The position numbers were made by a program, and so were the translations under genes. From Parcubacteria group bacterium GW2011_GWA1_56_13 (GTDB lineage: Bacteria; Patescibacteriota; Minisyncoccia; Phycocordibacterales; Phycocordibacteraceae): a DNA stretch of 64,000 nucleotides. The notes under the pieces were generated by a model. It worked only from the letters and a program-made list of their open reading frames with translations. It was not told the DNA's origin and did no database searches. Where the stretch lies: contig LCRY01000002.1 in assembly GCA_001004905.1 (NCBI GenBank), positions 1,559 to 65,558 on the forward strand, written 5' to 3'. This document shows, one piece after another, positions 4,307 to 59,469 of this stretch; position 1 is the first letter of the stretch; each line of letters opens with the position of its first letter.

Positions 4307-4336
4307 TTTACGGCTCGTTTGGTGTTCGGGTATACT
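4307..4336 (+). promoter_or_regulatory. Putative sigma70-like promoter giving a leaderless transcript for the VirD4-like gene
   Basis: -35 TTTACG (4307-4312), 18-nt spacer, -10 TATACT (4331-4336). ATG at 4345 lies about 8 nt after the -10. Confidence 0.3.
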
Positions 4337-4344
4337 AGAACGCA

Positions 4345-5910: not shown

Positions 5911-6158
5911 GGCCATCCTGCGCTCCATGACGGCGAAGGACGGCGAAGAAAAAGAAAGGAAGCAGGAACAGCGCCAAGAATCACTCAAAGGCACTCTTGC
6001 CGCCGTCTTACAGAGGAACCAGTCCGCTCCGCAGAAACGCGAACGAAGTGAGGAACCGGCTCCGGCCAAGCAGCAGCCGGCCGCGCCAAAGAAAAAACCT
6101 TTCGAAGTTCCTGAAGATGCTCTCCGCAAGGTGCTCAAGGGCGAACAATAGCCCGTGT

Positions 6159-6689: not shown

Positions 6690-6770
6690 TGAAACTTATT
6701 CTTGTAACCCCGGTACCACAACCTCGCTACGCTCAGTTGGTTACGGGGCAGGCTGGTGGCAAAATTGAAT

Positions 6771-8764: not shown

Positions 8765-8773
8765 ACTGCCCGT

Positions 8774-14162: not shown

Positions 14163-15584
14163 ATGATTCAGTTCGTGCTGCTTTGCGCAGGTGTTACGGC
14201 AATTCTATTCTTCTCATCGTTCCATTTGTTCGACAGCCCGGAAACATGGATGGACGAAGGACTCATCATACAGTCGGCGGTCGGACTTCTTCACACTGGA
14301 GAGGCCGCATTGCCCGTGGCGCCGGGCATTTTCGAGCCGGCGTGGTACATTACCACAGGTTTTCCTCTGACGCTCCCGCTTGCGGCAGCATTCGCGTTTT
14401 TCGGCGTGTCGCTTGAAGCCGCCCGCCTGGTGATGCTGGCGTTCCTATTATGTTTTTATGCGGTTCTCTTTCTATATGCACGCAGAGCCATAGGCGGCAC
14501 TGCCGCCTGGTTTGGGTTCTTTCTCCTTGTCTTTTTCGCTCCAATTTACGGCAATGGCCGCAACGTGCTCGGCGAAATTCCCGGGCTTTTGTTCATGCTC
14601 CTTGCATTCCTGCCGCTCTTGTATGGAGGGGAACTGACACGTACGAAAGTCCTGTGCATCGGCGCGGGAGCGGGCCTTGCGGTTGCCACAAAACCGATAT
14701 TCATTCTGTTCCTGCCAGCGTTGCTCGTTACGGCCCTCCTGCACCGCCGTGAATTCTCGTTGAGGACAGCGTTTCCGTTCGGTGCGCTTGGCGTTGCCGT
14801 TCCCCTTATCGTTTGGTTCTTTCTCCAGTTTGACGGGGTGGGAATTTCGCAAGTGCTTGCCATATACGCCAATCCGCACGCCGTCGACATCAAAAGCGCT
14901 ATCGCCGCTAATGTGCACCGGCTGTTCGCAGAAGGACAGCCGCTCTATTTCTTTATGGCGCTCGTTGCCTGGTGTGCCAGTTACGCCGTGCGCCGAATAC
15001 GCAGGGAAGCCGTTTCGTTCGCCGAAGAATCGCTCCTGTTCTTTAGCGTATTCGTGGCGTTCGCGTATCTGCGCACTGCGGGGTACTACCGTTATTTCTT
15101 TCCCGCCCAGATTTTCGTGCTCTTGTATCTTCCGCAGTCGGTCCTCTACCTCGCCCGGGGCCGTGCTCGCATGGTTTCCCTCGCCGTCATCGCCTGTCTC
15201 TGCGGACTCGTTCTGTTCCAGGCGTACGAAACGGCATTCCGTTCGTGGACGGCGGTACATTATAATTCGACGCGCACTGAAACGCTCGCGCGATATGTCG
15301 CCGGGCTCCCCGCCAAAGCGAAGATCTTCGTGTATCAGGCGCCCGAGGCCGTACCGTTCCTTTCGGGGCGCGCTGTGTACCAATATGCGGAGATCACTCC
15401 GACCATTCGCTTCGGAGAAGCATACGTTCCGCTCATCCTGTCGGGGGAAGTGCCGCGCATCATCACTCGCGCGGACCTCTTTGAAGCGCATCGGACCGAC
15501 CTCTTTGCGCACTACGTACTCTCCGGGGAAGCGGACGGCTACGCTATGCTGGTCCATACGGCCCTCTCGGGGCAATCACGATGA
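14163..15584 (+). CDS. GT-C fold integral-membrane glycosyltransferase (PMT/ArnT-like, family 39/83-type)
   Basis: Start moved to ATG 14163 (MIQFVLLCAGV). Multiple TM helices. First-loop DE motif SPETWMDEGLIIQSA, typical of polyprenyl-phosphate-sugar-dependent GT-C enzymes. Confidence 0.55.
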   Translation: MIQFVLLCAGVTAILFFSSFHLFDSPETWMDEGLIIQSAVGLLHTGEAALPVAPGIFEPAWYITTGFPLTLPLAAAFAFFGVSLEAARLVMLAFLLCFYAVLFLYARRAIGGTAAWFGFFLLVFFAPIYGNGRNVLGEIPGLLFMLLAFLPLLYGGELTRTKVLCIGAGAGLAVATKPIFILFLPALLVTALLHRREFSLRTAFPFGALGVAVPLIVWFFLQFDGVGISQVLAIYANPHAVDIKSAIAANVHRLFAEGQPLYFFMALVAWCASYAVRRIRREAVSFAEESLLFFSVFVAFAYLRTAGYYRYFFPAQIFVLLYLPQSVLYLARGRARMVSLAVIACLCGLVLFQAYETAFRSWTAVHYNSTRTETLARYVAGLPAKAKIFVYQAPEAVPFLSGRAVYQYAEITPTIRFGEAYVPLILSGEVPRIITRADLFEAHRTDLFAHYVLSGEADGYAMLVHTALSGQSR

Positions 15585-16006
15585 GCACACCAACTTTTTT
15601 GCTCCTTATCCGATACGGCGTCGCCGGCATGACAGGTGCACTCATCCAGACAAGCACGCTGTACATATGGGTCGACGTATTCCACTTTGAGGATTGGTAT
15701 CTCGTCGGGGCGGTAGTCGGCTTTCACCTGGCGCTTCTTGCGACCTTTGCGCTCCAAAAATACTGGACGTTCCGTGACCGCGCGTACGCCGGGATACGAA
15801 GGCAATTCTTTTTCTACACAATCATCGCGCTCGCGAGTCTCGGGCTGAACATCCTGTTCCTGCACACGAGCAAGCTCTTTCTTGAGCGTCTCGGGTTCGA
15901 TTTCTTCCACGGCTGGTATCTGCTCGCGCAGGTTGGCAGTATCGCTATTGTCGCCGCCACGAGCTTCGTCGCGAATTATTCTCTGACGTTCCGCAGGCCT
16001 GTATGA
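15581..16006 (+). CDS. GtrA-family membrane protein (flippase accessory subunit)
   Basis: 141 aa, 4 TM. FLLLIRYGVAGMTGALIQTSTLYIW and KYWTFRD GtrA signature. Confidence 0.8.
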   Translation: MSTPTFLLLIRYGVAGMTGALIQTSTLYIWVDVFHFEDWYLVGAVVGFHLALLATFALQKYWTFRDRAYAGIRRQFFFYTIIALASLGLNILFLHTSKLFLERLGFDFFHGWYLLAQVGSIAIVAATSFVANYSLTFRRPV

Positions 16007-16713
16007 GCAAGACGGTTATATTACTGCCGACCTATAATGAGCGCGAAAATATCCGGCTCATCGTGTCGGAGATATTCGCCGTCGACCCCCATCTCGGCGT
16101 CATGGTCATTGACGATAATTCTCCCGACGGAACGGCGGAAGAAGTGCGCGCGCTCATGCGGGAGTATCCGAATCTGCGATTGCTCTTGCGGCGGAGGAAG
16201 GAAGGGCTCGGCGAGGCGTATAAAGCGGGAATGCTTCAGACACTTGCCGATCCCGCCGTTGAGAGAATATTCACCATGGACGCGGACGGTTCGCATGCGA
16301 CGGAATATCTGCCTGACATGCTCCGCGCCGGCGAAACGCACGACCTTGTCATCGGGTCCCGATACGTACCGGGAGGAGGGATAGAAAACTGGGAGCCATG
16401 GCGATACCTACTCTCAGAATGGGGAAATTTTTACGCACGCACTATCACGGGGCTTGCTGTCCGGGACCTGACCGCCGGGTATATGTGCTTCCGAGCCGAC
16501 CTTTTACGCAAGATCGACCTGTCGCGTCTGCAGGCGTCCGGCTACGCTTTTCTCATGGAACTGAAATTTTGCGCCACTCGCTCGTTCAGGTGTAGCTTTA
16601 AAGAGGTTCCTATCCACTTCAAGGCCCGGAGGGGGGGAGAGTCGAAAATCTCCGGGCACATAATACGCGAGGGGCTTTCAACGCCATGGAAGCTTCGGTT
16701 TAAGAAAAAATGA
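16003..16713 (+). CDS. GT2 polyprenyl-phosphate sugar synthase (dolichyl-phosphate mannose synthase-like)
   Basis: VILLPTYNERENI. VIDDNSPDGT. MDADGSH (DXD). DLTAGYMCFR. Confidence 0.85.
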   Translation: MSKTVILLPTYNERENIRLIVSEIFAVDPHLGVMVIDDNSPDGTAEEVRALMREYPNLRLLLRRRKEGLGEAYKAGMLQTLADPAVERIFTMDADGSHATEYLPDMLRAGETHDLVIGSRYVPGGGIENWEPWRYLLSEWGNFYARTITGLAVRDLTAGYMCFRADLLRKIDLSRLQASGYAFLMELKFCATRSFRCSFKEVPIHFKARRGGESKISGHIIREGLSTPWKLRFKKK

Positions 16714-17582
16714 ACTGTCCGGTCTGCCGCGGTCCCGCACGTCCCCTGTATAAAAAAGGTAGATTTGATGTTGCTAGATGCACCCAGTGCAGGACTCTCT
16801 TTATAGAGAACCCGCCTCCCGACACCTCTGCCATATATGACGAAACATATTTTTTTGGAGGCGGCGGAAGCGGAGGATATGGCTCCTATGATACGGAAAA
16901 GGAGATGATGCGAGGCACCTTCGAGCGCTGCCTCGACCTTATTTCGCGTTACCAAGCAAAAGGAAATCTTTTTGATGTGGGGGCTGCCACCGGCTATTTC
17001 TTGACGCTCGCGAAAAGGCGCGGCTTTGGCGTTTCCGGCGTTGATGTCTCTTCTACCGCCGCACAGGAGGCAAGGAGAAAGGGAATTGACGTGCGGGTGG
17101 GAACACTCGAAACGATTGATTATCCGTCCGCCTCGTTCGAGGTGGTAACTTTGTTTGATGTGCTCGAACATGTGCCGCACCCAGATTCATTCATTAGGCA
17201 TGCTGCAGACCTGCTCGCTCCGGGAGGGATTCTTATGGGAAGCACTCCGGACAGTGGAAGCGCATACGCGCGTATCATGGGCAGACGCTGGCATCTGCTC
17301 TTCCCCCCGGAACATTTGGTGCTGCTCAACGACTATAGTCTGCGCCTGCTGCTTTCCAAGCATGGACTGGAGACAGTATGGACTGGCCGCATCACGAAGC
17401 GCTTCAGTTTACCCTACATTTTTCAAACGACGGCCCGCTGGCTCGGCGTCCCATTGCTGAATCGGATAGGGAACATGCTCCGCGGCACGCGGCTTGGGGC
17501 ACTCGCTATACCGCTTGATTTGCACGACAATATATTTTTTGTGGCGCGCAAAAAGACACCACCGGCACCGGCTCCTTGTTAG
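16710..17582 (+). CDS. SAM-dependent methyltransferase with N-terminal zinc ribbon
   Basis: CPVCRGPA...CTQCRTLF zinc ribbon. LFDVGAATGYFLTLA motif I. Confidence 0.75.
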   Translation: MNCPVCRGPARPLYKKGRFDVARCTQCRTLFIENPPPDTSAIYDETYFFGGGGSGGYGSYDTEKEMMRGTFERCLDLISRYQAKGNLFDVGAATGYFLTLAKRRGFGVSGVDVSSTAAQEARRKGIDVRVGTLETIDYPSASFEVVTLFDVLEHVPHPDSFIRHAADLLAPGGILMGSTPDSGSAYARIMGRRWHLLFPPEHLVLLNDYSLRLLLSKHGLETVWTGRITKRFSLPYIFQTTARWLGVPLLNRIGNMLRGTRLGALAIPLDLHDNIFFVARKKTPPAPAPC

Positions 17583-18424
17583 CGCCACGCGAAGATCATG
17601 TAGGCATGCGCAACATCGCGGTTGATTATTTGATGCGGCTGGGAGGTGGATTTCACAAAAGTGCGGAATCCCGCTGATTCGAGTAGCGCAAGCATTTCCG
17701 AGAGCGGCCGCGTGAAGGAACCGGGAATATAGTGGTATTCAAGCTGTATCGTCTCCACCTGAGAGAGCTTCTTTCCCGTCCGCAGTTCTTCAAGAACGTC
17801 GAATTCCGGCCCTTCAATATCAAGTTTAAGCAGGTGTACCGTGCTGACGATGTATCGCGAGAGGGTATCGACTTCTATCTGATAGGAATGCTGTGGGCGG
17901 TTTTTCTTCCCCGCGTGGTTCGCTATGCTCCCGCTACTGCTTGTCTCTTCCGTATCATCAACAAACAGATTTGCCGTGCCCCTGCTCGCGCCGAGGGCAT
18001 AGGGGAATACTCGCACATCCTTTTCCCATCCGTTCGCCTGAATATTCTTCTCGAGGACTGTCCGGGCCGCAGGATTTGGCTCGAAACACTGAACGTGGGC
18101 GCACGGAGCGCGAAGTTTGATATAGAGAAGCGAAACGCCTATATTGGCTCCGCAGTCGATGACCTCTATCGGTGCATCCGTCGGGCCGATGAAATAAGTC
18201 TCCTTGAAAAATATCTCGGTAAAAAGTCCGACAAACGAGTCAAGAGAAGGAAAGTAAAAAACATGTGGTCCGACGGGGACGCGCGCAAGCAAACCCTTTT
18301 TCGGCGGCCGAAGCTTGTTCCGCAGATGCGCGAGCGCGAACGCAACCGTTGCTTGAGAGCCGAGAAGCGTGCGGAGCTTTAAGAAATAGTCTATATGGCG
18401 GGAGAATTTCACTTTGGTGGTCAT
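17579..18424 (-). CDS. FkbM-family methyltransferase
   Basis: Only convincing minus-strand gene inside the locus. IDCGANIGVSLLY and LKLDIEGPEFDVL FkbM motifs. Overlapping plus ORF 17732..18382 is Arg-rich and judged spurious. Confidence 0.8.
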   Translation of the reverse strand: MTTKVKFSRHIDYFLKLRTLLGSQATVAFALAHLRNKLRPPKKGLLARVPVGPHVFYFPSLDSFVGLFTEIFFKETYFIGPTDAPIEVIDCGANIGVSLLYIKLRAPCAHVQCFEPNPAARTVLEKNIQANGWEKDVRVFPYALGASRGTANLFVDDTEETSSSGSIANHAGKKNRPQHSYQIEVDTLSRYIVSTVHLLKLDIEGPEFDVLEELRTGKKLSQVETIQLEYHYIPGSFTRPLSEMLALLESAGFRTFVKSTSQPHQIINRDVAHAYMIFAWR

Positions 18425-18443
18425 TTTAACGCATTTCGTCGAA

Positions 18444-18452
18444 TGCTACTAT
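18444..18452 (+). promoter_or_regulatory. Extended -10 element for leaderless GtrA transcript
   Basis: TGcTACTAT, 6 nt upstream of ATG 18459, in the 34-nt divergent gap. Confidence 0.3.
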
Positions 18453-18458
18453 GGCGGC

Positions 18459-18857
18459 ATGCGTGTTCTGAAATTCCTTGTCGCCGGCGCAACGGGCGTC
18501 AGCGTGAACCTCGGTATCTTTCATGTGTTGTATGTGGCCGGCATTCCATATCTGGGAGGCTCTGCCATCGCCGTCCTTCTTTCCATGACAGTCGGCTTCC
18601 TACTACAGAAATACTGGACGTTCGAGGATCGGACGCCGGAGCGCATGCCCGTGCAATTTTTCCAGTACGCAATGCTCGCACTCGGCAATGTGGCGTTCAA
18701 TACCGCCGTCATATATATTCTCATCGGCAAGCTTGGTGTTTTTTATCTATTTGCGCAGGCGATCGCCGCGGCGATCGTCGCGACGTACAGTTTTTTCGTC
18801 TATCGCCTATTCATTTTTAGGTCGCGGGTGGACAGTGGAAAAGTAGCGGGATTGTGA
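18459..18857 (+). CDS. GtrA-family membrane protein
   Basis: Start moved to ATG 18459 (MRVLKFLVAGATGV); the track start 18414 is a TTG. KYWTFEDR GtrA signature. Confidence 0.8.
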   Translation: MRVLKFLVAGATGVSVNLGIFHVLYVAGIPYLGGSAIAVLLSMTVGFLLQKYWTFEDRTPERMPVQFFQYAMLALGNVAFNTAVIYILIGKLGVFYLFAQAIAAAIVATYSFFVYRLFIFRSRVDSGKVAGL

Positions 18858-18876
18858 TTATACTGAACACCATATC

Positions 18877-19893
18877 GTGAAAGATATCCATACTTATTTC
18901 ATCACCGGCGTTGCCGGTTTTCTTGGAAGCCACCTCGCGGAGAGCTTGCTGAAGGACGGGCATCGCGTCATCGGTTGCGACAATCTCGTCGGCGGCTATC
19001 TCGACAACGTGCCGGCGGGAGTAGAACTGCACGCGATCGATTGCAGCGACCGCGCCAAGATGGCCGAACTCTTGCGTGGAGTTGAAGTGGTGTATCACAC
19101 TGCGGCATACGCCTACGAGGGACTTTCCGTTTTTTCACCATATCTCGTGTCTGAAAACATTTTCGGTGGAACGGTTTCGGTTGTCTCGGCTGCAATCGCG
19201 AACAAAGTGAAACGGTTCGTACAGTGTTCTTCGATGGCGCGGTATGGCACGCAGCCAATAATCCCGTTTACCGAAGATATGGACTGTCGGCCGCAGGACC
19301 CGTACGGCATCGCGAAGTATGCGGCGGAACTTACGGTGCGCAATCTCTGTGAGGTCCACGGCATGGAGTACGTTATTGCCGTGCCGCATAACATCATCGG
19401 CCCTCGTCAGAAATATGATGACCCTTTCCGCAATGTTGCGTCAATCATGATAAACCTCATGCTACAGGGGCGGCAGCCCATCATCTATGGCGACGGAGAA
19501 CAAAAACGCGGCTTTTCCTTCGTGGATGACGTGGTCGCGCCGCTGAAGCGCATGGGCACCGACGCCGCACCTGTCGGAGAAGTCATCAATATTGGTCCTG
19601 ATGACCAGTTTATCACTATCAACGAGCTTGCCGCGACTATCGCCAGACTGCTCGATTTCAAATTGGCGCCGGTCTACATGCCGGGTCGGCCCCAAGAGGT
19701 GCGATATGCGACTTGCAGTGCTGACAAAGCACGCAAGCTTCTTGATTACAAAACCACCATGTCGCTTGAGGACGGTCTCACCAGCATGATCCGGTATATC
19801 CGCACTCGCGGTCCAAAGTCGTTCCTCTATCACCTTGACCTTGAGATCGTGAACGACAAGACACCGCGGACCTGGAAGGACCGCCTCTTCTGA
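18877..19893 (+). CDS. NAD-dependent sugar-nucleotide epimerase/dehydratase
   Basis: FITGVAGFLGSHLAESL. YGIAKYAAE (YxxxK). Confidence 0.85.
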   Translation: MKDIHTYFITGVAGFLGSHLAESLLKDGHRVIGCDNLVGGYLDNVPAGVELHAIDCSDRAKMAELLRGVEVVYHTAAYAYEGLSVFSPYLVSENIFGGTVSVVSAAIANKVKRFVQCSSMARYGTQPIIPFTEDMDCRPQDPYGIAKYAAELTVRNLCEVHGMEYVIAVPHNIIGPRQKYDDPFRNVASIMINLMLQGRQPIIYGDGEQKRGFSFVDDVVAPLKRMGTDAAPVGEVINIGPDDQFITINELAATIARLLDFKLAPVYMPGRPQEVRYATCSADKARKLLDYKTTMSLEDGLTSMIRYIRTRGPKSFLYHLDLEIVNDKTPRTWKDRLF

Positions 19894-19897
19894 TGCC

Positions 19898-20623
19898 ATG
19901 TACCGTGGTAAAAAAGTAAGCATTGTTCTCCCGGTATATAACGAGCGGGAGAATATACGCACGGCGATAGAGGAATTCCTCCAGCATCCAGCCGTGGATG
20001 AAGTGGTCGCCGTGGACAACAACTCCAAAGACGGCAGTGACACCGAGATTAAACTCACCTCGGCGAAGTATGTGAAGGAAACGGTGCAGGGATACGGAGC
20101 GGCGCTGCGGCGCGGCATGCGCGAGGCAACGGGCGATCTTATCGTAACGTGCGAGCCGGACGGCACGTTCCGCGCGGCCGATCTGGACCGGTTCCTGGTC
20201 TACAGTCAAGAGTACGATACGGTATTCGGCACGCGCACGTCGCGGAATCCTGTTTGGTCCGGCGGCGGCTCTGGTGCGAACATGGATTTCTTCTTGCGTA
20301 TGGGGAACTGGGCGGTCGCGAAGTTTCTCGAATATCTCTTCAATGGTCCGTCCTTTACGGATATCGGCTGCACCTACAAACTTATTCATCGTCTCGCCTA
20401 TGAGCGGATTAAACATTCACTCACGGTCGACGGTAGCTGGTTTTCTCCGGAGTATATGATTCGCGTGCTTCAGCATCGGCTATCCGTCGTCGAGATTCCC
20501 GTACGGTACGGCGCGCGCATCGGGACTTCGAAGATAACTGGCAGACGGTCCAAGGCAATCGCGCTCGGGTTCAGGATGATTTGGCTTATCGTTGTCGAAC
20601 GATTCAGGTCATGGCTGTCGTAA
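19898..20623 (+). CDS. GT2 polyprenyl-phosphate sugar synthase (DPM1-like)
   Basis: VSIVLPVYNERENI. VDNNSKDGS. EPDGTF. Confidence 0.85.
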   Translation: MYRGKKVSIVLPVYNERENIRTAIEEFLQHPAVDEVVAVDNNSKDGSDTEIKLTSAKYVKETVQGYGAALRRGMREATGDLIVTCEPDGTFRAADLDRFLVYSQEYDTVFGTRTSRNPVWSGGGSGANMDFFLRMGNWAVAKFLEYLFNGPSFTDIGCTYKLIHRLAYERIKHSLTVDGSWFSPEYMIRVLQHRLSVVEIPVRYGARIGTSKITGRRSKAIALGFRMIWLIVVERFRSWLS

Positions 20624-20630
20624 TCAGCGC

Positions 20631-22433
20631 ATGAACAGGTCCACCCTTATGACGTACGCGGCCGCGATAAGAGATTTCCTGAGGGCCCGTCGTCCAATCG
20701 TGATGCTCATGGGGATCGTGCTCGCGCTTACCCTAGTCCCCATTCTCGACACCTACCTGATAGTCGGGGACGCATGGCGGGGCATCCTGCCCACGTTCAC
20801 CGACGAAACCATCTACCTCGCGCACGTGCAAACGGTAGGGGAGGGGTATCTGAGCGACGGCAACCCATACTTCCTCGAGCATCGCAATGACCCACCACTC
20901 GTCATCTTCGGCGGCGCGTGGCTGAACGCAGTTCCTCTTTTGGCGGGCATGCCGCTCAATGTGGCACTGATGCTTAATTTCATTTTGTGGAGTTTGCTGT
21001 TCGCCGTTTCCCTGTATTGGCTACTTCGGGAGTTCCGCATTCCATCGTGGCTCGCCGTGTTCACTACGGTACTCGTCTACTTGCAGTCATACGCCCATGT
21101 CTGGCGGCCGGCCAACCTGCAGCCAGTGTATCCCTTCTACTTTTTGTTCTATATCGCGCTTGCGCGCCTTATTCGCGAACAAAGCCGCAGAAATATCACG
21201 CTGCTCGCCCTTGCGACCGGCGCGCTCTTTTATCTTTTTGCGTATCTCTGGCAGATCGCCATTATCACGCTCGGTCTCCTTCTTTTGTATGCACTCGTCC
21301 GGAAGGACTGGCCATTAGCGAAAGCAACATTCATTTCGTCGCTTATCGGTGGCCTCATCGGACTCCCGGTGCCGCTTTACATGCTCTGGATCTCCCATGC
21401 CTCACCGTATTTTTGGGAAAGCATCAGCCGTTTCGGGCTTGTGAGTACGCACCTGCCCATGGCAGAAATCATCTACTCGGGCGGGTGGATCGGGTTGCTA
21501 CTCGTCTTCCTCGCGGTACTCTACTGGCGCTCGCGCCCGCTGCGCGGGGATGAAGAGTTCATCCTGCTCGGCTCGTTCATCGCCATAGGCGGTCTCGGCC
21601 TATGGGTCATGCAAGGGAGTAATCTTATAACCGGCAAGTTGCTTGAGACCGGTGAGCATGTTCGTATTTTGATGCTACCCTGGCTCGCCTTCTCCACGGT
21701 CATTGTCGGCATGTATGTATGGAGGCATCGCGTGCAGCTGTCGGGACCACTGCGATTACTCTCAGCCGGTATGTTCGCAGCTCTGTTGGCGGTGAATTTG
21801 TACTATACGTACTATTACTTCGCGCCTTTTTTCAAGGTAGAGGCGAATCGTGAATTCTGGCAGACCGAACAGTCATATGCCGCGCCATTCGCGTGGCTGC
21901 AACATGGTGAGAAGGCACCCGTCGTCGTGTGGAGCGATCCCAGCAATTACGCTACGCCGAGCCTGCCGGTCTTTACCAGGCATTTCACGCTTTTCACGGA
22001 GTTCAGTATGTGGCAACTGGTGTCTAATAGCGAATTTCGCGAACGGTACCTCGTCTCCCAATATTTTAACGACCCGACCGTAGAGGACTTGAAACGAGAA
22101 CTCCCAAGATACATGGGGCGTCAGGATGCCTTCCATAACGCCAAGACCATCGAGCGCGGGATAAAAATCTGCCGAATATTCTTTTTCTGGGACGCAGATA
22201 AAGACTGTGGCACGCCGCCGACCTCCATTGGTCTATTGGGAGAGGAATTCTTTACGAATATGGAGCGGAGATTTCGGACCGATATCAAGCCGAACATTAA
22301 AACGTATCTGGAGAAATATCACGTCTCTTACATACTGAAGGATGTTGCCCGCGACGCACAGTATCATCCCGAAGCGTTGGGCGCGGTGCGTGTGTACGCC
22401 GACGGCCATTTCGAGATTTATCGCCTGCCATGA
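20631..22433 (+). CDS. Polytopic membrane protein, candidate GT-C glycosyltransferase with C-terminal soluble domain
   Basis: Start moved to ATG 20631 (MNRSTLMTY). More than 10 predicted TM helices. DE motif in first loop: TFTDETIYLAHV. ~200-aa non-membrane C-terminus. Confidence 0.4.
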   Translation: MNRSTLMTYAAAIRDFLRARRPIVMLMGIVLALTLVPILDTYLIVGDAWRGILPTFTDETIYLAHVQTVGEGYLSDGNPYFLEHRNDPPLVIFGGAWLNAVPLLAGMPLNVALMLNFILWSLLFAVSLYWLLREFRIPSWLAVFTTVLVYLQSYAHVWRPANLQPVYPFYFLFYIALARLIREQSRRNITLLALATGALFYLFAYLWQIAIITLGLLLLYALVRKDWPLAKATFISSLIGGLIGLPVPLYMLWISHASPYFWESISRFGLVSTHLPMAEIIYSGGWIGLLLVFLAVLYWRSRPLRGDEEFILLGSFIAIGGLGLWVMQGSNLITGKLLETGEHVRILMLPWLAFSTVIVGMYVWRHRVQLSGPLRLLSAGMFAALLAVNLYYTYYYFAPFFKVEANREFWQTEQSYAAPFAWLQHGEKAPVVVWSDPSNYATPSLPVFTRHFTLFTEFSMWQLVSNSEFRERYLVSQYFNDPTVEDLKRELPRYMGRQDAFHNAKTIERGIKICRIFFFWDADKDCGTPPTSIGLLGEEFFTNMERRFRTDIKPNIKTYLEKYHVSYILKDVARDAQYHPEALGAVRVYADGHFEIYRLP

Positions 22434-24663: not shown

Positions 24664-25688
24664 AGAAACGGCGCGCCCTCATAACCGGCATTACGGGCCA
24701 GGACGGATCCTACTTGGCAGAGCTGCTGCTTGAGAAAGGGTACGACGTGCACGGCCTTATCCGGCGCTCGAGCCGCGACCCTCTCGTCCGCCTTTCATCC
24801 CTCAAGGATCAAGTGGTGTTCCATTACGGCGATCTGCGCGATCTCGCGGCGCTCGAACGCGCCATCGCGCAGTCGGACCCGCACGAGATCTACAACCTCG
24901 CGGCGCAATCCGACGTCGGCATCTCTTTTAAGGTGCCGGAAGAAACATATGAAATCAACTATGCGGGCGTCGGCCGCCTGGTCGACGCCGCGATGCGGCA
25001 CAATCCGGACGTGAGGATTTACCAGGCATCAACATCGGAAATGTTCGGTGCGACTCCGCCGCCCCAGCACGACGAATCCCCCATGTTGCCCGTCTCGCCG
25101 TACGGCATAGCAAAACACAAGGCGCATGAGGATTATGTAAAAGGGTATCGCGAGCGACACGGCCTTTTCATCTGCTCGGGCATTCTTTTCAACCACGAAA
25201 GCCCGCGCCGCGGCGAGCATTTCGTCACGCGGAAGATTACCATCTCCTTGGCGAAAATACAGGCAGGTCAGCAGGAACGATTGATGCTCGGCAATCTGAA
25301 CGCGAAACGGGACTGGGGGTACGCGCCCGATTATGTGCATGCCATGTGGCTCATGCTGCAGCAGGATCGCCCGCAGGATTTCGTCATAGCGACCGGAAAA
25401 CAGCGATCGGTGCGCGAATTTCTGGCGCTTGCCGCTGCGGCGATCGGCATGCCGCTCACATTCGAAGGTTCGGGAGAAAAGGAGGTCGGCCGCGACGCGT
25501 CGGGGACCGTCCGGGTCGCGGTCGATCCGCGGCACTATCGTCCATCGGAGGTGCATTCATTGCTCGGTAACGCGAAAAAGGCGATGCGGGTTCTCAAATG
25601 GAAACCGAAGGTTTCGTTTGCCGAACTCGTCCGCATCATGGCTGAAGCCGACCTGAAGGCCGTGCGCGATGGGCTCAAGGTCTCGTAA
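24660..25688 (+). CDS. gmd: GDP-mannose 4,6-dehydratase
   Basis: LITGITGQDGSYLAELLLEKGYDVHGLIRRSS. YGIAKHKAHE. FNHESPRRG are Gmd signatures. Confidence 0.9.
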   Translation: MKKRRALITGITGQDGSYLAELLLEKGYDVHGLIRRSSRDPLVRLSSLKDQVVFHYGDLRDLAALERAIAQSDPHEIYNLAAQSDVGISFKVPEETYEINYAGVGRLVDAAMRHNPDVRIYQASTSEMFGATPPPQHDESPMLPVSPYGIAKHKAHEDYVKGYRERHGLFICSGILFNHESPRRGEHFVTRKITISLAKIQAGQQERLMLGNLNAKRDWGYAPDYVHAMWLMLQQDRPQDFVIATGKQRSVREFLALAAAAIGMPLTFEGSGEKEVGRDASGTVRVAVDPRHYRPSEVHSLLGNAKKAMRVLKWKPKVSFAELVRIMAEADLKAVRDGLKVS

Positions 25689-25722
25689 CCATTCGACGCG
25701 CGCACAGCGTTATAAAAAATAC

Positions 25723-27591
25723 ATGAGCAAAGAACAGGACGCTCTGCTCGTCTTGTATGAGCAATCTCATGCGGACCTAGCGACGTCGGGAACGCGCGTC
25801 GCGTGCCTCAACTTCTGGCTTGAACAAGAACTCAAGTCACGCGGCATCGCCTGCCTCTCGCTGGGTGACTGTCCATCAGATGGCGTACGTACGGCGGAAC
25901 TGGTGAATGCAACACGGGCCGCCGCACGAGAATGGTACCGACTGCCTGCGATGAATTTTTTTATGCACAAAGGGATACCTATTGGCGAGGCATTCGAGCC
26001 AATGGTCGATACGTATCTTGGACGTCTTGCGTACTGGCGTTACTCCTCAACGAGGATACTCGATGCTGTACCTGAGACCACAGAGCTCATCATCCCGCAT
26101 AGTACTGTGGAAATATCGGCGACGGCAGGCCCGCTCGCTCATTTTGAAGTGCGGGCCGCAGTGGATGCGGCGCGCTCGCTCGCGACGGAACGCGGTCTCG
26201 CATTCCGTACGCTCGGGGATGCATCCCGACCTCCGGCGCGGCATGTGTATCCGCGCTCGCGCCTCCAAGAGACAATCGTCGCGTTCTACAACTTTTGTAT
26301 CGGTTTCGCACCTCGTCGGCCGCTGAAAATCTTCGCGAGCGAGTATTGGCGCAACATAGCTCCGTTCATCACGCGGATGGATGACGCGGAGCTTGTGCTC
26401 ATGGAACGCGGCGAGTTCAAAAACATTCCCTGGCGGCAATTGTGGGGGCATCGGATACGCTTCATGCATCCGCGCGCCGTTGCGCGCGGCACGTGCCGCG
26501 CCGCGGCTCGTAGCGCCACAGAGGGATTTCGCGCTGCGTGGCCGGCCGCGCGGCTGGCACTTAAAGATTGGGAGGGATGGAAGCGTGCCGATATCCCATG
26601 GGCGGTCGTGGAACCGGCCCTGGAGTATCTCGTCGGGACGTACGCCGAGCGCATCGTTGCAGATATGGAAGGGCTCGAACGAATCGTGGTGCGTGAGAGG
26701 CCCGATAAGGTGCTATTGCGTGCTTCAGTTGGCGGTCGGCAGCCGCATTTCTTTCTTGCCGCGAGGGTCGCTCGGCGACTCGGTATCCCCTCGATAGAAC
26801 TCCAACACGCGGGTGCGTACGTGGACCCGCGTTCGGTGCTCTCGCGGCTTGAGACGGACTACCTCGCCGCGTACGGCTCGCATGAGCGCGAATTTTATGA
26901 GCAGAATGGCTATGCGCCGGAGCGCATCATCCTCGTCGGGTCTCCGCGCTTCGACCGTTGTATTGCCGAGCGTTTGCAGGCACAGGCGCACGGCACACGT
27001 CTGCTACAAGAAGCCGGACTTGACCCCGCGCGGCCAGTGCTCCTGGCGGCGGTGCCCGACGAGGGGGTCGGCTTCGGCATCGACTCGTTCATGCTCGCCG
27101 ACTTTTTCCGCGCCGTAGCGAGCATACCGGCCCGCACGCCGGGATTGCAGGTCGTCTTCAAGTTCCGTCCCGGCAATCGAGAGCAGGCGTCACGTGACTT
27201 TGCGCGCAGTCTTGTTCCTGATGCCGTGTGCATGGCAACCGAAGATCTCTTTTCTCTCATCTGCGCATCGGATATAGCGATATGTGGCAACTCTACCGTC
27301 ATCTATGAGGTGCTCATCGCCGGTAAACCGCTTTTGCTCCACCCTTGGCGCAAGGACGACACGTATCATGCGCGGATGTACGCCCCTGCGGCCCCGATCC
27401 TATACGCCGCCGCGGAACTCGCAGAAGCAGTCGCGCGAGCGCTCTCCGACGACGCATATCGGCGAGAACTCATTGCCCGTGGCCGGGATTTTCTACAGGG
27501 GTATTCTTTTGACGGAAAATCGGCGCAGCGTATGGCGTCGCTATTGCATAACAATTTAGCCTGCGTACCCTCTGGTATAGTCGCTCTATGA
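25723..27591 (+). CDS. Large hypothetical polysaccharide-biosynthesis protein with C-terminal GT-B-like (TagB/TagF- or KpsC/S-like) region
   Basis: Start moved to ATG 25723 (MSKEQDALL), directly after TTATAAAAAAT. C-terminus ICGNSTVIYEVLIAGKPLLLH resembles glycerophosphotransferase/capsule-synthesis GT-B enzymes. Function uncertain. Confidence 0.3.
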   Translation: MSKEQDALLVLYEQSHADLATSGTRVACLNFWLEQELKSRGIACLSLGDCPSDGVRTAELVNATRAAAREWYRLPAMNFFMHKGIPIGEAFEPMVDTYLGRLAYWRYSSTRILDAVPETTELIIPHSTVEISATAGPLAHFEVRAAVDAARSLATERGLAFRTLGDASRPPARHVYPRSRLQETIVAFYNFCIGFAPRRPLKIFASEYWRNIAPFITRMDDAELVLMERGEFKNIPWRQLWGHRIRFMHPRAVARGTCRAAARSATEGFRAAWPAARLALKDWEGWKRADIPWAVVEPALEYLVGTYAERIVADMEGLERIVVRERPDKVLLRASVGGRQPHFFLAARVARRLGIPSIELQHAGAYVDPRSVLSRLETDYLAAYGSHEREFYEQNGYAPERIILVGSPRFDRCIAERLQAQAHGTRLLQEAGLDPARPVLLAAVPDEGVGFGIDSFMLADFFRAVASIPARTPGLQVVFKFRPGNREQASRDFARSLVPDAVCMATEDLFSLICASDIAICGNSTVIYEVLIAGKPLLLHPWRKDDTYHARMYAPAAPILYAAAELAEAVARALSDDAYRRELIARGRDFLQGYSFDGKSAQRMASLLHNNLACVPSGIVAL

Positions 27592-30947: not shown

Positions 30948-30979
30948 ATATTACAGTGGAAGCATTTACTATGGTATCC

Positions 30980-55426: not shown

Positions 55427-55457
55427 GGCTCCTCTCGCGAGGAGCCAAGTTTCTTTT
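55427..55457 (+). terminator. Rho-independent terminator
   Basis: GGCTCCTC-tcgc-GAGGAGCC perfect 8-bp GC-rich stem followed by aagtttcttttg. Confidence 0.45.
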
Positions 55458-55491
55458 GCCCGTCCACGCGGGTTATAGTTATGACGACGAT

Positions 55492-57258
55492 ATGAAAGGC
55501 ACGATACAGGCGCTCCGACAGGCGTTCGGCAGGTACCGCTGGCACATTGGAGCGCTGGTGGTGTTCGGTATACTGAGCCCCCTCCTTGAAGGAATCGGCA
55601 TCAATGCGGTCATTCCGCTCATGTCATTTTTCATGGGCGGCGGCGACGGCGCGACGGATTTCATCACGAATGCGATACGGGGCACGTTCGGTTTCTTCGG
55701 GATACCGTTCAGCTTCCGGTATCTGCTCGCCTTCATCCTCTGCTTGTTCATAGTGCGAGCGATTTCCGTCGTTGTGTTCGGCTATCTTCGCGGCTGGATA
55801 GGCGCGGACTTTCTCGGGAAAGAAAGCGAGGAAGTACTGCGCCGGGCGCTGTTTGCCTCATGGCCGTTCTCGCTGAAGCAGAAGATAGGAACGATGCATA
55901 ACACGCTCGTGCGCGACGTCCAGCAAACGGGAGTTCTCCTGGGCGCGATGGTTCAGGTCATACAATCCTTCAGCGGCTTTCTCATGTACCTCCTCGTGGC
56001 GGTCAATATCTCGCCGGTAATGACATTCTATGCGATAGGTGGCGGAGCCGTTCTGCTGTTCCTTTTGCGGCCGCTCCTTCGCCGTACGGAGCGCATCGGG
56101 CAGCAAACCGCGAGAGTCGAGAAGCAGTTTGCGCAATTCCTGAGCGAGCACATCATCGGAATGAAATCGATCAAAGCCGCGGGAATGGAGCGCGCCGCCA
56201 TCAAAAATGGTACGGCGCACATCCGCCTCTTGCGTCATCTCTCGATACGCCAATCACTCGTCGGCTCGGTGAGCTCAAGTTTTTTCCAGCCGTTCTCCAT
56301 TGTCCTCGTGGTGCTACTGTTCCTCTTGACGTACCACACGCCGACATTCAGCATCATTTCCTTCGCCGCTTCCCTCTATCTGATACAGAAAATATTCGCC
56401 TACCTTGAGTCCGGACAGAACGCCATGCAATCCGTAAGCGGGCTGCTGCCGTATGCCAAGAACATCGCGGAATTCAAACACAATCTGGACCAGCATCGCG
56501 AATCATTCGAAGGAACAAAGCCATTCGTGCTTAACAAGGAACTCGCTTTCCAGAGAGTTTCATTCGCGTATGGCGAGGACAAGCCGATCCTGAGCGGCCT
56601 TACGTTTTCCATACGCGCAGGGGAGACCGTCGGGCTCATCGGGCCTTCGGGCGCCGGAAAGACGTCGGTCGCCGACCTGCTGCTACGGCTCTTCAAGCCG
56701 ACCGAGGGCTCGCTCACGCTCGATGGCGTGCCGAGCGAATCAATATCCCTCGAAGCGTGGCGCAAGAATATCGGTTACGTATCGCAGGACGTATTCCTAT
56801 TGAACGCCACCATCGAAGAAAATATCCGATTTTACAACCAGGACTTGACCATAAAAGACATCGAGAGCGCCGCGAAGCAGGCGAATATATATGACTTTAT
56901 CAAAGAGCTGCCCGAAGGATTCGGCACGAGGACCGGAGACCGCGGCGTCATGCTTTCAGGCGGCCAGCGCCAGCGCGTGGCGCTCGCCCGCGCGCTCGCC
57001 GGCCGTCCCAAGCTTCTCATATTGGATGAAGCGACAAGCGCGCTCGACTCGGCTTCGGAGAAACTCATACAAGAAGCCATCGGCGCCTTGCACGGCAGCG
57101 TAACCGTGTTCATTATCGCGCACCGGCTAAGCACCATCGAACGCTCGGACCGCCTGTTGGTGCTTGAGCAAGGAAAGATCACGGAAGAAGGCGCCCCGCA
57201 GGAGCTTCTCGGGCGCCCGGATTCCTATTTTTACAAATACCACGACCGCCGCGGATGA
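55492..57258 (+). CDS. ABC exporter, fused permease/ATPase (MsbA/PglK-like)
   Basis: Start ATG 55492 (MKGTIQALRQ); the track start 55456 is a TTG. Six TM. Walker A GPSGAGKTSVADLL. ABC signature LSGGQRQRVALARALAGRPKLLILDEATSALD. Confidence 0.9.
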   Translation: MKGTIQALRQAFGRYRWHIGALVVFGILSPLLEGIGINAVIPLMSFFMGGGDGATDFITNAIRGTFGFFGIPFSFRYLLAFILCLFIVRAISVVVFGYLRGWIGADFLGKESEEVLRRALFASWPFSLKQKIGTMHNTLVRDVQQTGVLLGAMVQVIQSFSGFLMYLLVAVNISPVMTFYAIGGGAVLLFLLRPLLRRTERIGQQTARVEKQFAQFLSEHIIGMKSIKAAGMERAAIKNGTAHIRLLRHLSIRQSLVGSVSSSFFQPFSIVLVVLLFLLTYHTPTFSIISFAASLYLIQKIFAYLESGQNAMQSVSGLLPYAKNIAEFKHNLDQHRESFEGTKPFVLNKELAFQRVSFAYGEDKPILSGLTFSIRAGETVGLIGPSGAGKTSVADLLLRLFKPTEGSLTLDGVPSESISLEAWRKNIGYVSQDVFLLNATIEENIRFYNQDLTIKDIESAAKQANIYDFIKELPEGFGTRTGDRGVMLSGGQRQRVALARALAGRPKLLILDEATSALDSASEKLIQEAIGALHGSVTVFIIAHRLSTIERSDRLLVLEQGKITEEGAPQELLGRPDSYFYKYHDRRG

Positions 57259-57309: not shown

Positions 57310-59469
57310 ATGGAGGGTAACGGTACGGCTCGCCAGATAGCACGGTGGGTGGCGCTCAGTGCGCTTTTCTTGCTTCCGCTCACGCCGCTTGTCGTCGTGA
57401 ACGGTTTTTTCTTTCCTTTCATTACCGGCAAGGCGTTTTATTTGCGTTCACTAATAGAGATAGCGGTTGCCGCATGGGCGGTCCTTGCGTTCCTTGACAG
57501 GGCATATCGGCCGCGCTTTTCCTGGATCGGTGCGGCGGTCGTCGGCTTCGTTCTCTGGATGTTCGTGGCCGACGCGTTCGCGCTGAATGCGATGAAGGCC
57601 TTCTGGAGCAACTTTGAACGCATGGAGGGATGGGTGCTCCTCATCCACTTGCTCGGATTCTTTTTCGCGGCGAGCGCGGTACTGCGGGTCGAGCGCAAGT
57701 GGCGCGCCTGGTTCCTGACATCGCTCGGCGTTTCGCTTCTCATTTCCGTCTATGCGTTGTTGCAGCTTGCGGGCGTCCTCGCGATACACCAGGGTTCGAC
57801 GCGCATAGACGCATCCCTCGGCAATTCCGCCTATCTCGCCATCTACTTCCTGTTCAGCATTTTCGTCGCCCTCTGGCTCGCGCTCACGGAACAGCGCGCA
57901 TGGCTTAAGTGGTCGCTCATCGCGCTTGCGGTCCTGGAAGGCGTCCTCATCTTCTTTACCGAGACGCGCGGTACGATCATAGGGCTCGTACTCGCGCTCG
58001 CACTCGCGGCGCTTCTCACTGCGGTCACTGCGAGCAGACACATCCGCAGCTATGCCATAGGTGCGCTCGCTCTCATTCTCGTTCTCACCGGCGGTTTTTA
58101 TCTTGCGCGCCATTCATCGTTCGTGCAGAACAACCATGTGTTACAACGAGTTGCTTCCATCTCACTGTCCGACGGCCAAACTCGCTTCACGCTTTGGCGC
58201 ATGGCTTTCGAAGGGGTCAAGGAGCGTCCGCTCCTCGGCTGGGGACAGGAGGGATTCAATCATGTGTTCAACAAATACTACGACCCCTCCCTCTATCAGC
58301 AGGAGCAGTGGTTCGATCGGGCGCACAACACGTTCATCGACTGGCTTTCCGCCGGCGGCGTCCCGGCATTCTTGTTGTATCTTTCGCTCTTCGGTACGGC
58401 CGTCCTGTTGCTCTGGAGAAGCACCGAACTGTCGCGTCCTGAACGCATCGCGCTCACTGCCGCGTTCCTTGGCTACGCCGTTCATAATTTTTTCGTCTTC
58501 GACAACCTTTCCTCGTACCTTTATTTCTTCGCCCTCCTCGCGCTCGTGGATTCGCAGGTCGCGCGGCCCATCACACGACTTGAAACGGCACCCGAAGTTC
58601 CTGCCGCCGACGGCATGGCATATCTGCTGCCCATCGGCGCCGTCGCCGCGCTCACGCTCGTGTGGACCGTAAATATTACCGGTATGCAGACGGCATCCCG
58701 GCTCATTACCGCGCTCTCGTCCTCGAATCTTTCGGATAGCACCGCGATTTTTCAGGATTTCGCCGCGCATCCGACCTTTGCCTCGCAGGAAATCCGCGAA
58801 CAGCTCATCGCGTACGCGGCCGCGGTTGCACAAAGCGCATCGCTGCCGGACGATGCGAAACAGCAAATACTCGCGCTCGCTATACACGAGATGCAAAGAC
58901 AAGTCGTCGCATACCCAATGGATGCGCGTGGGCGTTCCCAACTCGCCTATATCTACCGCGTCGCTGGCGATACCGAGAGCGCTCTAAAGGAGCTCGACGC
59001 CGCCCTCGCTCTTTCTCCAAAAAAGGAACAGTTTCTCGTGGATAAGGGTGTCATTGAGTGGAATACGGGCGACATGCAGGGGGCGCAACGGGATTTCAAT
59101 GCCGCATACGAGCTTGGGCCGCAGTTCTCCGCCCTCGCGGCTTATGCTGCGGCCGGCAACATCGCCGTTGGTGACGTTGCGGTGGGCGATAAGATACTTC
59201 TTGCCGCCTTCGGCACGACGAACCCGACGAACGACATTCTCTCGCTTGCGTATTACCTGAGCAAGAACTGGCCGCGGCTTATCGCGTTCTGGAAGGCGCG
59301 CGCCGCTTCCGCAACGGGTCCCGAACCATGGTTCTCGCTCGCCGCCAGTTACTATGCCGCCGGTGACGCGGCCGGTGCCATAGCAACCTTGAATGCCGCG
59401 GTCGCAAAATACCCAGAGGCCTCTTCCTCCGCAGCAGCCGCGCTCAAACAGATACGAGAAGGAAAATGA
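57310..59469 (+). CDS. Wzy_C (O-antigen ligase / O-oligosaccharyltransferase-like) membrane protein fused to C-terminal TPR repeats
   Basis: ~12 TM N-terminal domain with FFTETRGTIIGL (Wzy_C R-x-G region). C-terminal ~250 aa of TPR-like repeats (ALKELDAALALSPKKEQFLVDKGVIEWNTGDMQGAQRDFNAAYELGP). Confidence 0.7.
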   Translation: MEGNGTARQIARWVALSALFLLPLTPLVVVNGFFFPFITGKAFYLRSLIEIAVAAWAVLAFLDRAYRPRFSWIGAAVVGFVLWMFVADAFALNAMKAFWSNFERMEGWVLLIHLLGFFFAASAVLRVERKWRAWFLTSLGVSLLISVYALLQLAGVLAIHQGSTRIDASLGNSAYLAIYFLFSIFVALWLALTEQRAWLKWSLIALAVLEGVLIFFTETRGTIIGLVLALALAALLTAVTASRHIRSYAIGALALILVLTGGFYLARHSSFVQNNHVLQRVASISLSDGQTRFTLWRMAFEGVKERPLLGWGQEGFNHVFNKYYDPSLYQQEQWFDRAHNTFIDWLSAGGVPAFLLYLSLFGTAVLLLWRSTELSRPERIALTAAFLGYAVHNFFVFDNLSSYLYFFALLALVDSQVARPITRLETAPEVPAADGMAYLLPIGAVAALTLVWTVNITGMQTASRLITALSSSNLSDSTAIFQDFAAHPTFASQEIREQLIAYAAAVAQSASLPDDAKQQILALAIHEMQRQVVAYPMDARGRSQLAYIYRVAGDTESALKELDAALALSPKKEQFLVDKGVIEWNTGDMQGAQRDFNAAYELGPQFSALAAYAAAGNIAVGDVAVGDKILLAAFGTTNPTNDILSLAYYLSKNWPRLIAFWKARAASATGPEPWFSLAASYYAAGDAAGAIATLNAAVAKYPEASSSAAAALKQIREGK

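Follow-up and report, generated by a model that had tools for sequence, protein, structure and literature searches.

A 64,000-nucleotide stretch of the genome of Parcubacteria group bacterium GW2011_GWA1_56_13 (the window hereafter) probably encodes two independent three-component extracytoplasmic glycosylation modules, each combining a predicted donor synthase of glycosyltransferase family 2 (GT2), a small GtrA-family membrane protein, and a polytopic glycosyltransferase of the GT-C type, within a large surface-glycan island. The genome is of the Kaiserbacteria type in the candidate phyla radiation (CPR/Patescibacteria), and the 594-amino acid (aa) product of one of the two GT-C genes (GT-C2) is 100% identical to the NCBI hypothetical protein UY93_C0002G0024 of this bacterium. 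Module 1 consists of GT-C1 (14163..15584, 473 aa), GtrA1 (15581..16006, 141 aa), GT2_1 (16003..16713, 236 aa), and the methyltransferase MT23 (16710..17582, 290 aa). Module 2 consists of GtrA2 (18459..18857, 132 aa from its ATG, with an open reading frame that opens at 18414), a nucleotide-sugar 4-epimerase-like short-chain dehydrogenase/reductase (SDR; 18877..19893, 338 aa), GT2_2 (19898..20623, 241 aa), and GT-C2 (20649..22433 with the NCBI start at 20649; an alternative start lies at 20631). A preliminary description of this stretch had arranged seven of these genes in two triads, and all seven are plus-strand open reading frames where it placed them, six with a Pfam identity; MT23 is likewise on the plus strand. 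Its first triad, GT-C–GtrA–GT2, was correct in membership and order but proved to be part of a four-gene set, as start/stop overlaps of 4 bp chain GT-C1, GtrA1, GT2_1, and MT23. Set 1 can thus be read as a translationally coupled four-gene unit with a conserved methyltransferase as its fourth member. Scans of 12.5–23 kb for promoter and terminator consensus sequences returned nothing beyond shuffled expectation, so that operon structure is deduced only from the overlaps of start and stop codons.

In the mechanism that we propose for both modules, a soluble GT2 at the cytoplasmic face, docked on GtrA, would move one sugar from a nucleotide sugar to polyprenyl phosphate. The four-helix GtrA protein would act as the membrane module of the GT2 and would probably move, or help to move, the lipid-phosphate-linked sugar outward, after which the cognate GT-C would transfer this sugar to an acceptor outside the membrane by means of an aspartate in its first outer loop (D31 in GT-C1, D52 in GT-C2). 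The same three-component logic had been put forward in the preliminary description, and a counterpart of each element was found, i.e., clade relatives of the GT2s, Pfam matches of the GtrA proteins, and modelled GT-C folds.

GT-C1 matches Pfam PMT_2 (PF13231; E 6.9e-9) with 36.6 bits against a gathering cutoff of 26.1, and its homologues carry PF13231 and PF02366, with source names of GT39 or ArnT-like type. A single-sequence search of PDB sequences with GT-C1 gave no match. When its AlphaFold2 model (predicted local distance difference test score, pLDDT, 94.6; predicted TM-score, pTM, 0.93) was compared to PDB structures with Foldseek, ArnT (5f15) ranked first (E 3.4e-9, TMq 0.62) in a list whose top 28 entries were GT-C enzymes without exception. 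Residues D31 and E32 (codons 14253–14258, context WMDEGLII) directly follow the first transmembrane (TM) helix, in the first outer loop, and both are invariant across 46/46 homologues. With PF13231, a loop-1 DE pair, and an ArnT-like modelled fold, GT-C1 can be assigned to the PMT_2/ArnT-like GT-C enzymes (GT83/GT39-type).

For GT-C2, searches against Pfam, NCBIfam, and PDB sequences gave zero matches. It is a real and conserved gene, because one search recovered 252 homologues, the closest at 60–68% identity and all from Parcubacteria, Kaiserbacteria, Paceibacteria, or Minisyncoccia, and an exhaustive search recovered 460 clusters at 50% identity. A profile built from 66 diverse members of this family (22–57% identity) retrieved nothing relevant from PDB sequences, and the same 66 members yielded one weak PMT_2 match (E 0.0046) and six weak DUF7654 matches (best E 0.0027) in Pfam. 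The fold was predicted with AlphaFold2 from 33 homologues (pLDDT 80.0, pTM 0.80). Its first 26 Foldseek matches in PDB were all GT-C glycosyltransferases with probability 1.00 (best E 2.6e-6, for STT3), including yeast and human STT3, AftA, DPY19, PglB, ArnT, AglB, EmbA/B/C, ALG12, and ALG6. Beyond rank 26 there was a sharp break in the list, and the MFS, MATE, and Nramp transporters that came next reached a probability of ≤0.15 and a TM-score of ≤0.16. In a profile–profile alignment (hhalign), the N-terminal module of GT-C2 aligned over 202 columns with the PMT_2-type family of GT-C1 (probability 83%, E 9e-6), pairing D52 of GT-C2 with D31 of GT-C1, which would indicate remote homology to PMT_2 rather than membership. 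Automated labels agree with a GT-C identity: one member is named “DUF2029 domain-containing” at NCBI, and a distant Falkowbacteria member is labelled “RgtA/B/C/D-like” in UniRef. On its predicted structure, GT-C2 would be a GT-C-fold protein of a family without any curated model.

This places the 20631..22433 protein, which the preliminary description had entered as a GT-C candidate at the end of its second triad (GtrA–epimerase–GT2–GT-C), among the GT-C glycosyltransferases. The outcome that the same description had named as fatal to its proposal was a transporter or other non-GT-C fold. Such a transporter, or any other non-glycosyltransferase membrane protein, would fit the want of a Pfam, NCBIfam, or PDB-sequence match, but the 26 leading GT-C structures, the very low scores of transporters, the profile–profile similarity to PMT_2, and the fusions with GT2 and GtrA described below make this almost certainly wrong, and we rejected it on the predicted fold.

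The topology of GT-C2 was obtained by reading the modelled helices with the positive-inside rule, the R/K-rich loops 8–16, 173–182, 218–220, 295–301, and 359–362 being taken as cytoplasmic. This gives a predicted protein of ~11 TM helices with its N-terminus inside and a 175-residue α/β domain at its C-terminus outside. As in GT-C1, an acidic pair, D52-E53 (context FTDETIY, codons 20802–20807), directly follows TM1, so that GT-C2 as modelled would combine a polytopic N-terminal module with an acidic residue in the first extracytoplasmic loop, as expected of a GT-C. The DE motif that had been noted in the first loop of both proteins is therefore present in each and invariant in the family of GT-C1, but only its Asp is kept in the family of GT-C2, where D52 occurs in 50/66 diverse members and position 53 varies between S, D, and E. 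Other conserved positions of the first outer loop are Y56, G71-N72-P73, and E77-H78 (Y56, G71, N72, P73, and E77 in >90% of members), followed by R153 and Q158 in the second outer loop, R261 and G263 in a long low-confidence loop (257–277), and E333 with an invariant H337 in another low-confidence loop (324–336). In the model, all strongly conserved polar residues of GT-C2 would thus face outward. Outer loops that are both conserved and flexible typify GT-C enzymes, ArnT and PglB among them. The outer C-terminal domain also includes a conserved Cys508/Cys520 pair, which fits an extracytoplasmic location.

The structural ranking raises the further question of whether GT-C2, instead of adding single sugars as side branches, works as an oligosaccharyltransferase or a glycan polymerase on a polyprenyl-diphosphate-linked oligosaccharide, as STT3, PglB, and AglB do. 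These are its best structural matches, with STT3 first, then PglB and AglB; a C-terminal outer domain of ~175 residues is also found in oligosaccharyltransferases; this domain contains an FFWDADKDCG stretch; and the ABC exporter of the cluster could supply a lipid-linked oligosaccharide. We regard this reading as unlikely, however, as AftA, DPY19, and ArnT, which use lipid-phosphate monosaccharides, score almost equally, and the cluster encodes another protein, the Wzy_C-type ligase, for en-bloc transfer. In the 66-member alignment, no WWDYG-type oligosaccharyltransferase motif is conserved, and only C508, C520, and G521 of the FFWDADKDCG stretch are kept. With this motif not conserved, and with the family tightly linked, and in several cases fused, to GtrA and DPMS-like GT2 proteins of the kind that produce and handle lipid-phosphate monosaccharides, the oligosaccharyltransferase reading was set aside.

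The predicted donor synthases were compared to dolichyl-phosphate mannose synthase (DPMS) and its relatives. Both GT2_1 and GT2_2 match Pfam Glycos_transf_2 (E 3.2e-22 and 2e-18) and have no TM segment. Residues 3–229 of GT2_1 align with the catalytic domain of Pyrococcus furiosus DPMS (PfDPMS; 5mlz, residues 24–244) at E 5.5e-28, with ArnC next, and DPMS (4.4e-8) and ArnC (1.2e-6) are also the best PDB relatives of GT2_2. The top NCBIfam models for both proteins are AglJ and DPhHxTase, i.e., archaeal dolichyl-phosphate-hexose synthases, and the mycobacterial polyprenyl-phosphate-GalNAc synthase PpgS; the values for GT2_2 are 3e-19 for AglJ and 5.8e-16 for dolichyl-phosphate-hexose transferase, both under the equivalog cutoffs. 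This points to the polyprenyl-phosphate sugar synthase clade (DPMS/GtrB/ArnC-like) for both GT2s, an assignment that applies at the level of the clade. Both GtrA proteins have three to four hydrophobic segments and score above the gathering threshold of Pfam GtrA_DPMS_TM (E 1.3e-14 for GtrA1 and 5.9e-22 for GtrA2), and GtrA2 also aligns with the C-terminal TM domain of PfDPMS (5mlz, residues 255–372; E 1e-6). Since GT2_1 and GtrA2 match the two domains of PfDPMS, each GT2 and GtrA pair would correspond to a split type-III DPMS, which it looks like without being a member as defined, its two parts being encoded by separate genes.

This correspondence bears directly on the role of GtrA. Rather than flippases, the GtrA proteins could be membrane domains that have become separate from a type-III DPMS-like synthase and that anchor the GT2 and present polyprenyl phosphate to it. 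Translocation would then depend on another factor, or be spontaneous or scramblase-like, and each triad would be a two-subunit synthase plus a GT-C. We consider this alternative credible, if not the one we favor. GT2_1 and GtrA2 match adjacent segments of a single PfDPMS chain, both GT2s without a TM segment would need a membrane partner, the Pfam family is itself named “GtrA/DPMS transmembrane domain”, and several distant GT2–GT-C2 contexts have no nearby GtrA. The flippase role of some GtrA proteins, such as Rv3789, has also been challenged (PMC12992685). However, the same work, a 2026 crystallographic study, argues that the TM domain of PfDPMS may itself flip dolichyl-phosphate-mannose (PMC12992685), so that anchoring and flipping are compatible, and GtrA is also found fused to GT-C rather than GT2, which fits a hand-over from synthase to transferase. 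A flip step by GtrA is therefore plausible, and GtrA may also, or only, be a membrane subunit of the synthase.

The association of these genes was next evaluated across related genomes, by mapping the neighbors of GT-C2 homologues with tblastn and phmmer in 21 loci found from an alignment of closer homologues, 18 of which had enough flanking sequence. The neighborhood conservation that had been proposed as a check of the triads was clearly observed: a DPMS-like GT2 lies ≤3 kb upstream of GT-C2 in 17/18 loci and ≤5.5 kb upstream in the 18th, and a GtrA gene was detected in 12 of the 18. Six loci (L010, L013, L014, L016, L018, and L020) share the GtrA–epimerase–GT2–GT-C2 architecture of the window, although in L013, L014, and L020 no GtrA could be detected immediately before the epimerase. 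In all six, the epimerase–GT2 pair is found at ~6200–8000, and identity to the window is 77–90% for the epimerase, 79–83% for GT2_2, and 54–62% for GT-C2. In a second architecture, GtrA(+)–GT2(−)–GT-C2(+), there is no epimerase and the GT2 is ~48% identical and divergently oriented; no GtrA was detected in two loci of this type (L008 and L015). The epimerase–GT2_2 pair, which varies much less between genomes than GT-C2 does and gives way elsewhere to a ~48% identical GT2 without epimerase, behaves as a swappable donor-synthesis cassette. For module 1, the block of GT-C1, GtrA1, GT2_1, and MT23 is kept in L014 and L016, with a GDP-mannose dehydratase inserted between GtrA1 and GT2_1 in L014. 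Distant members of the GT-C2 family (24–28% identity) adjoin an orthologue of GT2_1 (46–52% identity) in three of four informative contexts (L022, L023, and L026). The number of GT-C enzymes per island varies, as L013 carries two GT-C2-family paralogues (2071–3858 and 7992–9764) and L023 has two tandem PMT_2 genes and a sulfotransferase (1849–4577) beside its GT-C2-family gene.

Natural fusions join the same partners in single polypeptides. For GT-C2, these include a fusion with GT2_2 (P0049, 79.5% and 64.6% identical to GT2_2 and GT-C2 of the window), with a GT2_1-type protein (P0177), with GtrA2 (P0124, which carries a 66%-identical GtrA2 orthologue, and four others), and with an MT23-type protein (P0170). 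GT-C1-type proteins are fused to GT2 (P0288, P0302, and P0368) or to GtrA (P0333, P0341, P0343, and P0344). The partner is N-terminal in all GT-C fusions, which fits the predicted cytoplasmic N-terminus of the GT-C. With these linkages seen again both in related loci and in distant ones, and also in fused form, the grouping of these genes is not due to chance. The GT2–GT-C and GtrA–GT-C fusions, along with the conserved linkage, also lend indirect support to a polyprenyl-monophosphate donor that would carry a single sugar and be used on the outer face. These patterns argue against a reading in which the GT2s are ordinary cytoplasmic elongators of the main lipid-linked glycan, their adjacency reflects crowding in the island, and the GT-C donors are made elsewhere. 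The window is indeed packed with glycosyltransferases, including six GT4 genes, and both GT2s score under the curated equivalog thresholds; yet the best solved and curated relatives of both are polyprenyl-phosphate sugar synthases, the linkage persists at 24–28% GT-C identity in otherwise different clusters, and fusions of GT2 to GT-C exist in both GT-C families. We thus regard this reading as highly unlikely.

Several observations nonetheless weigh against two complete modules as proposed here. By sequence, GT-C2 appears to lie outside all curated GT-C families (PMT_2, PMT, STT3, YfhO, GT87/DUF2029, etc.), its TM-scores against solved GT-Cs are modest (0.45–0.50), and its profile link to PMT_2 reaches a probability of only 83%. 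D52 is missing in 16/66 members of the family, and the Glu of the “DE” pair is unconserved. Both GT2s fall far below all NCBIfam equivalog cutoffs, and the flippase function of the GtrA family is itself disputed (PMC12992685). Among the four distant GT-C2 contexts (L022, L023, L025, and L026), none has a GtrA within 6 kb, and no GT2 was found near the GT-C2-family gene of L025. Finally, the window yielded no priming phosphoglycosyltransferase, which leaves the acceptor pathway in it incomplete.

The two modules probably carry different sugars, given that their GT2s and GtrAs are only 29% and 30% identical to each other, their GT-Cs belong to different families, and module 2 has an SDR of its own, module 1 a methyltransferase. 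For module 2, the SDR (Pfam Epimerase, E 7.8e-50) has as best PDB relatives the UDP-Glc 4-epimerase 4zrm (2.8e-40) and the UDP-GlcNAc/GalNAc 4-epimerases 6wjb, 6dnt, WbgU, and WbpP (to 1e-30). In NCBIfam, it scores 89.9 bits for galE (cutoff 262) and higher, at 133 bits, for a LegB-type dehydratase (cutoff 475). This SDR is predicted to supply the sugar nucleotide of set 2, and its best solved relatives suggest a 4-epimer of a UDP-hexose or UDP-N-acetylhexosamine, i.e., galactose (Gal) or N-acetylgalactosamine (GalNAc). For module 1, the DPMS-like GT2, the coupled methyltransferase, and the GDP-mannose dehydratase inserted in L014 suggest a GDP-hexose-derived sugar that is possibly methylated.

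MT23 combines a Zn-ribbon with a class-I S-adenosylmethionine-dependent methyltransferase domain (Pfam Methyltransf_23, E 2.6e-28), and its nearest solved relatives, all weak matches, are UbiG-type enzymes and the Zn-domain nucleoside diphosphate (NDP)-sugar C-methyltransferase TcaB9. Its orthologues follow those of GT2_1 in L014 (13388–14263), L016 (13537–14409), L022 (5136–6011), and L026 (3510–4379), at 39–43% identity in the last two. The coupling of MT23 to GT2_1, its joint occurrence with this GT2 beside GT-C genes in distant genomes, and its fusion to a GT-C2-family protein in P0170 suggest methylation of the donor sugar prior to export. A second methyltransferase of the FkbM family (17579..18424; Pfam Methyltransf_21, E 2.4e-17) stands just upstream of GtrA2 as the sole minus-strand gene of the cluster; it overlaps the convergent end of MT23 by 4 bp, starts 34 bp from the start of GtrA2, and occupies the same place and orientation in L005, L007, L009, L016, L018, and L020.

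A broader proposal can be drawn from these patterns, which we offer as speculative and rather doubtful: GT-C2 would found an unclassified GT-C family (~460 clusters, in which all members with a taxon name are from Patescibacteria/CPR), served by a split type-III-DPMS-like donor synthase whose two parts would be a soluble GT2 and a free GtrA module, together with a “four-component” GT2–methyltransferase variant, sometimes fused to GT-C, that would methylate the NDP-sugar or the polyprenyl-phosphate-sugar on the cytoplasmic side before export. If this four-component variant is real, sugars would already be methylated when they are attached to the cell surface on the outer side of the membrane. 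Our literature searches found nothing relevant on methyltransferase-coupled three-component systems, and no paper on GT-C enzymes or three-component systems in CPR.

The three-component paradigm, which the arrangement in the window matches, has been reviewed (PMC11127046). Its prototype (Mann & Whitfield 2016, as covered in that review) is GtrA/GtrB/Gtr*, the O-antigen glucosylation of Shigella and Salmonella phages, which has the same clustered genes for a GT2 synthase, GtrA, and a GT-C with an acidic residue in an outer loop. Unlike this system, in which GtrB has two TM helices of its own, the GT2s of the window are soluble proteins of 236 and 241 aa; the host is without outer membrane and lipopolysaccharide, the GT-Cs are not of the Gtr family, and a methyltransferase is added in module 1 and an epimerase in module 2. 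The Gram-positive form, i.e., the teichoic-acid glycosylation by CsbB/GtcA/YfhO (and GtlA/GtlB) in Bacillus, Staphylococcus, and Listeria (PMC7389260), likewise operates in a single-membrane envelope and combines a GT2 on the cytoplasmic side with GtcA, a GtrA-family protein, and a GT-C that acts extracellularly, although neither GT-C of the window matches the YfhO family. A teichoic-acid-like acceptor is conceivable by this analogy, as the island contains a TagF-like gene (25669–27591) that is also seen in related loci.

Module 2 has a parallel in mycobacteria, where PpgS (Rv3631), Rv3632, Rv3779, and Rv3634c combine a dedicated 4-epimerase (in the window, a 4-epimerase-like SDR) with a GT2 synthase, a small membrane partner, and a GT-C, and another in the RgtE/RgtA-D set of Rhizobium, whose name also appears in the UniRef label of the distant GT-C2-family member. 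The mycobacterial enzymes decorate arabinogalactan with galactosamine, and the rhizobial ones add galacturonic acid. Here, however, organism, envelope, and acceptor differ, and the similarity is at the family level, below every curated cutoff. The mycobacterial 4-epimerase Rv3634c has been characterized (PMC5389812). Compared to the type-III DPMS of P. furiosus (5mlz; PMC5526996, PMC12992685), whose catalytic and TM domains are matched by GT2_1 and GtrA2, the domains in the window are separate polypeptides of neighboring genes, and the user of the product would be a bacterial GT-C encoded beside them. Similarities to the ArnC/ArnE-ArnF/ArnT system include ArnT as the best match of GT-C1, ArnC among the best matches of both GT2s, and an SDR predicted to prepare the sugar nucleotide; in contrast, lipid A is not an expected product of the host, ArnE/F belong to an SMR-like type and not to the PF04138 GtrA proteins, and no Ara4N pathway genes (equivalents of ArnA, ArnB, or ArnD) were identified next to the triads. 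The window differs from these systems in that its GT2s are soluble and its GtrA modules free, a conserved methyltransferase accompanies one GT2, the host belongs to the CPR, and one GT-C family is uncurated.

The surrounding island spans ~6.7–60 kb of the window, with genes nearly all on the plus strand, bordered by MurD/MurC-like ligase genes on one side and by MurB and SecA on the other. It encodes GT4 glycosyltransferases (at 7625, 8774, 9778, 10920, 22430, and 23587), methyltransferases, a GT47-like protein, a GDP-mannose dehydratase, the TagF-like glycerophosphotransferase, ATP-grasp ligases, an ABC exporter, and a Wzy_C ligase-type protein with tetratricopeptide repeats (TPR). The GT4 gene that follows GT-C2 (22430..23590, plus strand; Pfam Glyco_trans_1_4, E 1.9e-19) overlaps its stop by 4 bp, and a GT4 follows GT-C2 in nearly all related loci. 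The ABC exporter (55456..57258, plus strand; fused transmembrane and nucleotide-binding domains, Pfam ABC_tran, E 5.2e-34, and ABC_membrane) is a candidate exporter or flippase of the main lipid-linked glycan. The Wzy_C protein (57310..59469, plus strand; Pfam Wzy_C, E 4.3e-19), of the O-antigen-ligase/O-oligosaccharyltransferase type with C-terminal TPR repeats, is a candidate for attaching this glycan to its final acceptor. These two, GT-C1, GT-C2, GtrA1, and GtrA2 are the six polytopic membrane proteins of the whole window. As acceptor, the two modules could use the glycan that these GT4, TagF-like, ABC-exporter, and Wzy_C genes would produce, or else a protein at the cell surface.

Other parts of the window were also annotated. 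The Wzy_C protein lies just upstream of MurB (59466–60479) and SecA (60928–63462), and distant CPR contigs (L022, L023, and L025) show the same succession, a Wzy_C+TPR gene and then MurB or SecA, in the vicinity of GT-C2-family genes; this arrangement marks a conserved boundary of the variable glycan island. Near the opposite border, a TrwB/TraG/HerA-like P-loop ATPase (4345–5910) and a ComEA-like helix-hairpin-helix protein (5997–6689), which may be DNA-uptake components, stand between the Mur ligase genes and the island. Two stretches of low GC content (0.39–0.52, compared to 0.55–0.66 in the rest of the island) look like laterally acquired cassettes: 29800–35800, with FemAB/GNAT-like, NIF-phosphatase+GNAT, MaoC, SDR, aminoglycoside-N-acetyltransferase-like, and DUF4910 genes, and 46600–50800, with two ATP-grasp ligases and one methyltransferase. 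The island also holds a complete-looking pathway for a nonulosonic acid of pseudaminic or legionaminic acid type (35864–46079), with a PseB-like dehydratase, two DegT aminotransferases, a GFO/IDH oxidoreductase, a CMP-sugar cytidylyltransferase, and NeuB+SAF. The open reading frame at 37556–39076 overlaps its upstream neighbor (36883–37851) by ~300 bp and shows no DegT match before residue 140; its true start is probably later than called.

Overall, the proposed mechanism is well established and widespread in bacteria, and its presence here is expected rather than surprising to a specialist; what is most distinctive is the uncurated GT-C2 family and the coupling of GT2 to a methyltransferase. 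CPR/Patescibacteria are ultra-small and mostly uncultured episymbionts, and to our knowledge almost nothing is known about their surface chemistry, which probably governs host attachment. In this context, a Kaiserbacteria-type genome carries two complete predicted modules for decoration with lipid-phosphate-linked sugars, and a widespread family so far annotated as “hypothetical” is now recognizable as GT-C. The split arrangement of GT2 and GtrA, along with the natural fusions, bears on whether GtrA is a flippase, a synthase subunit, or both, and the sets of GT2, GtrA, and GT-C genes, together with these fusions, represent clonable targets for the heterologous reconstitution of CPR surface glycosylation.

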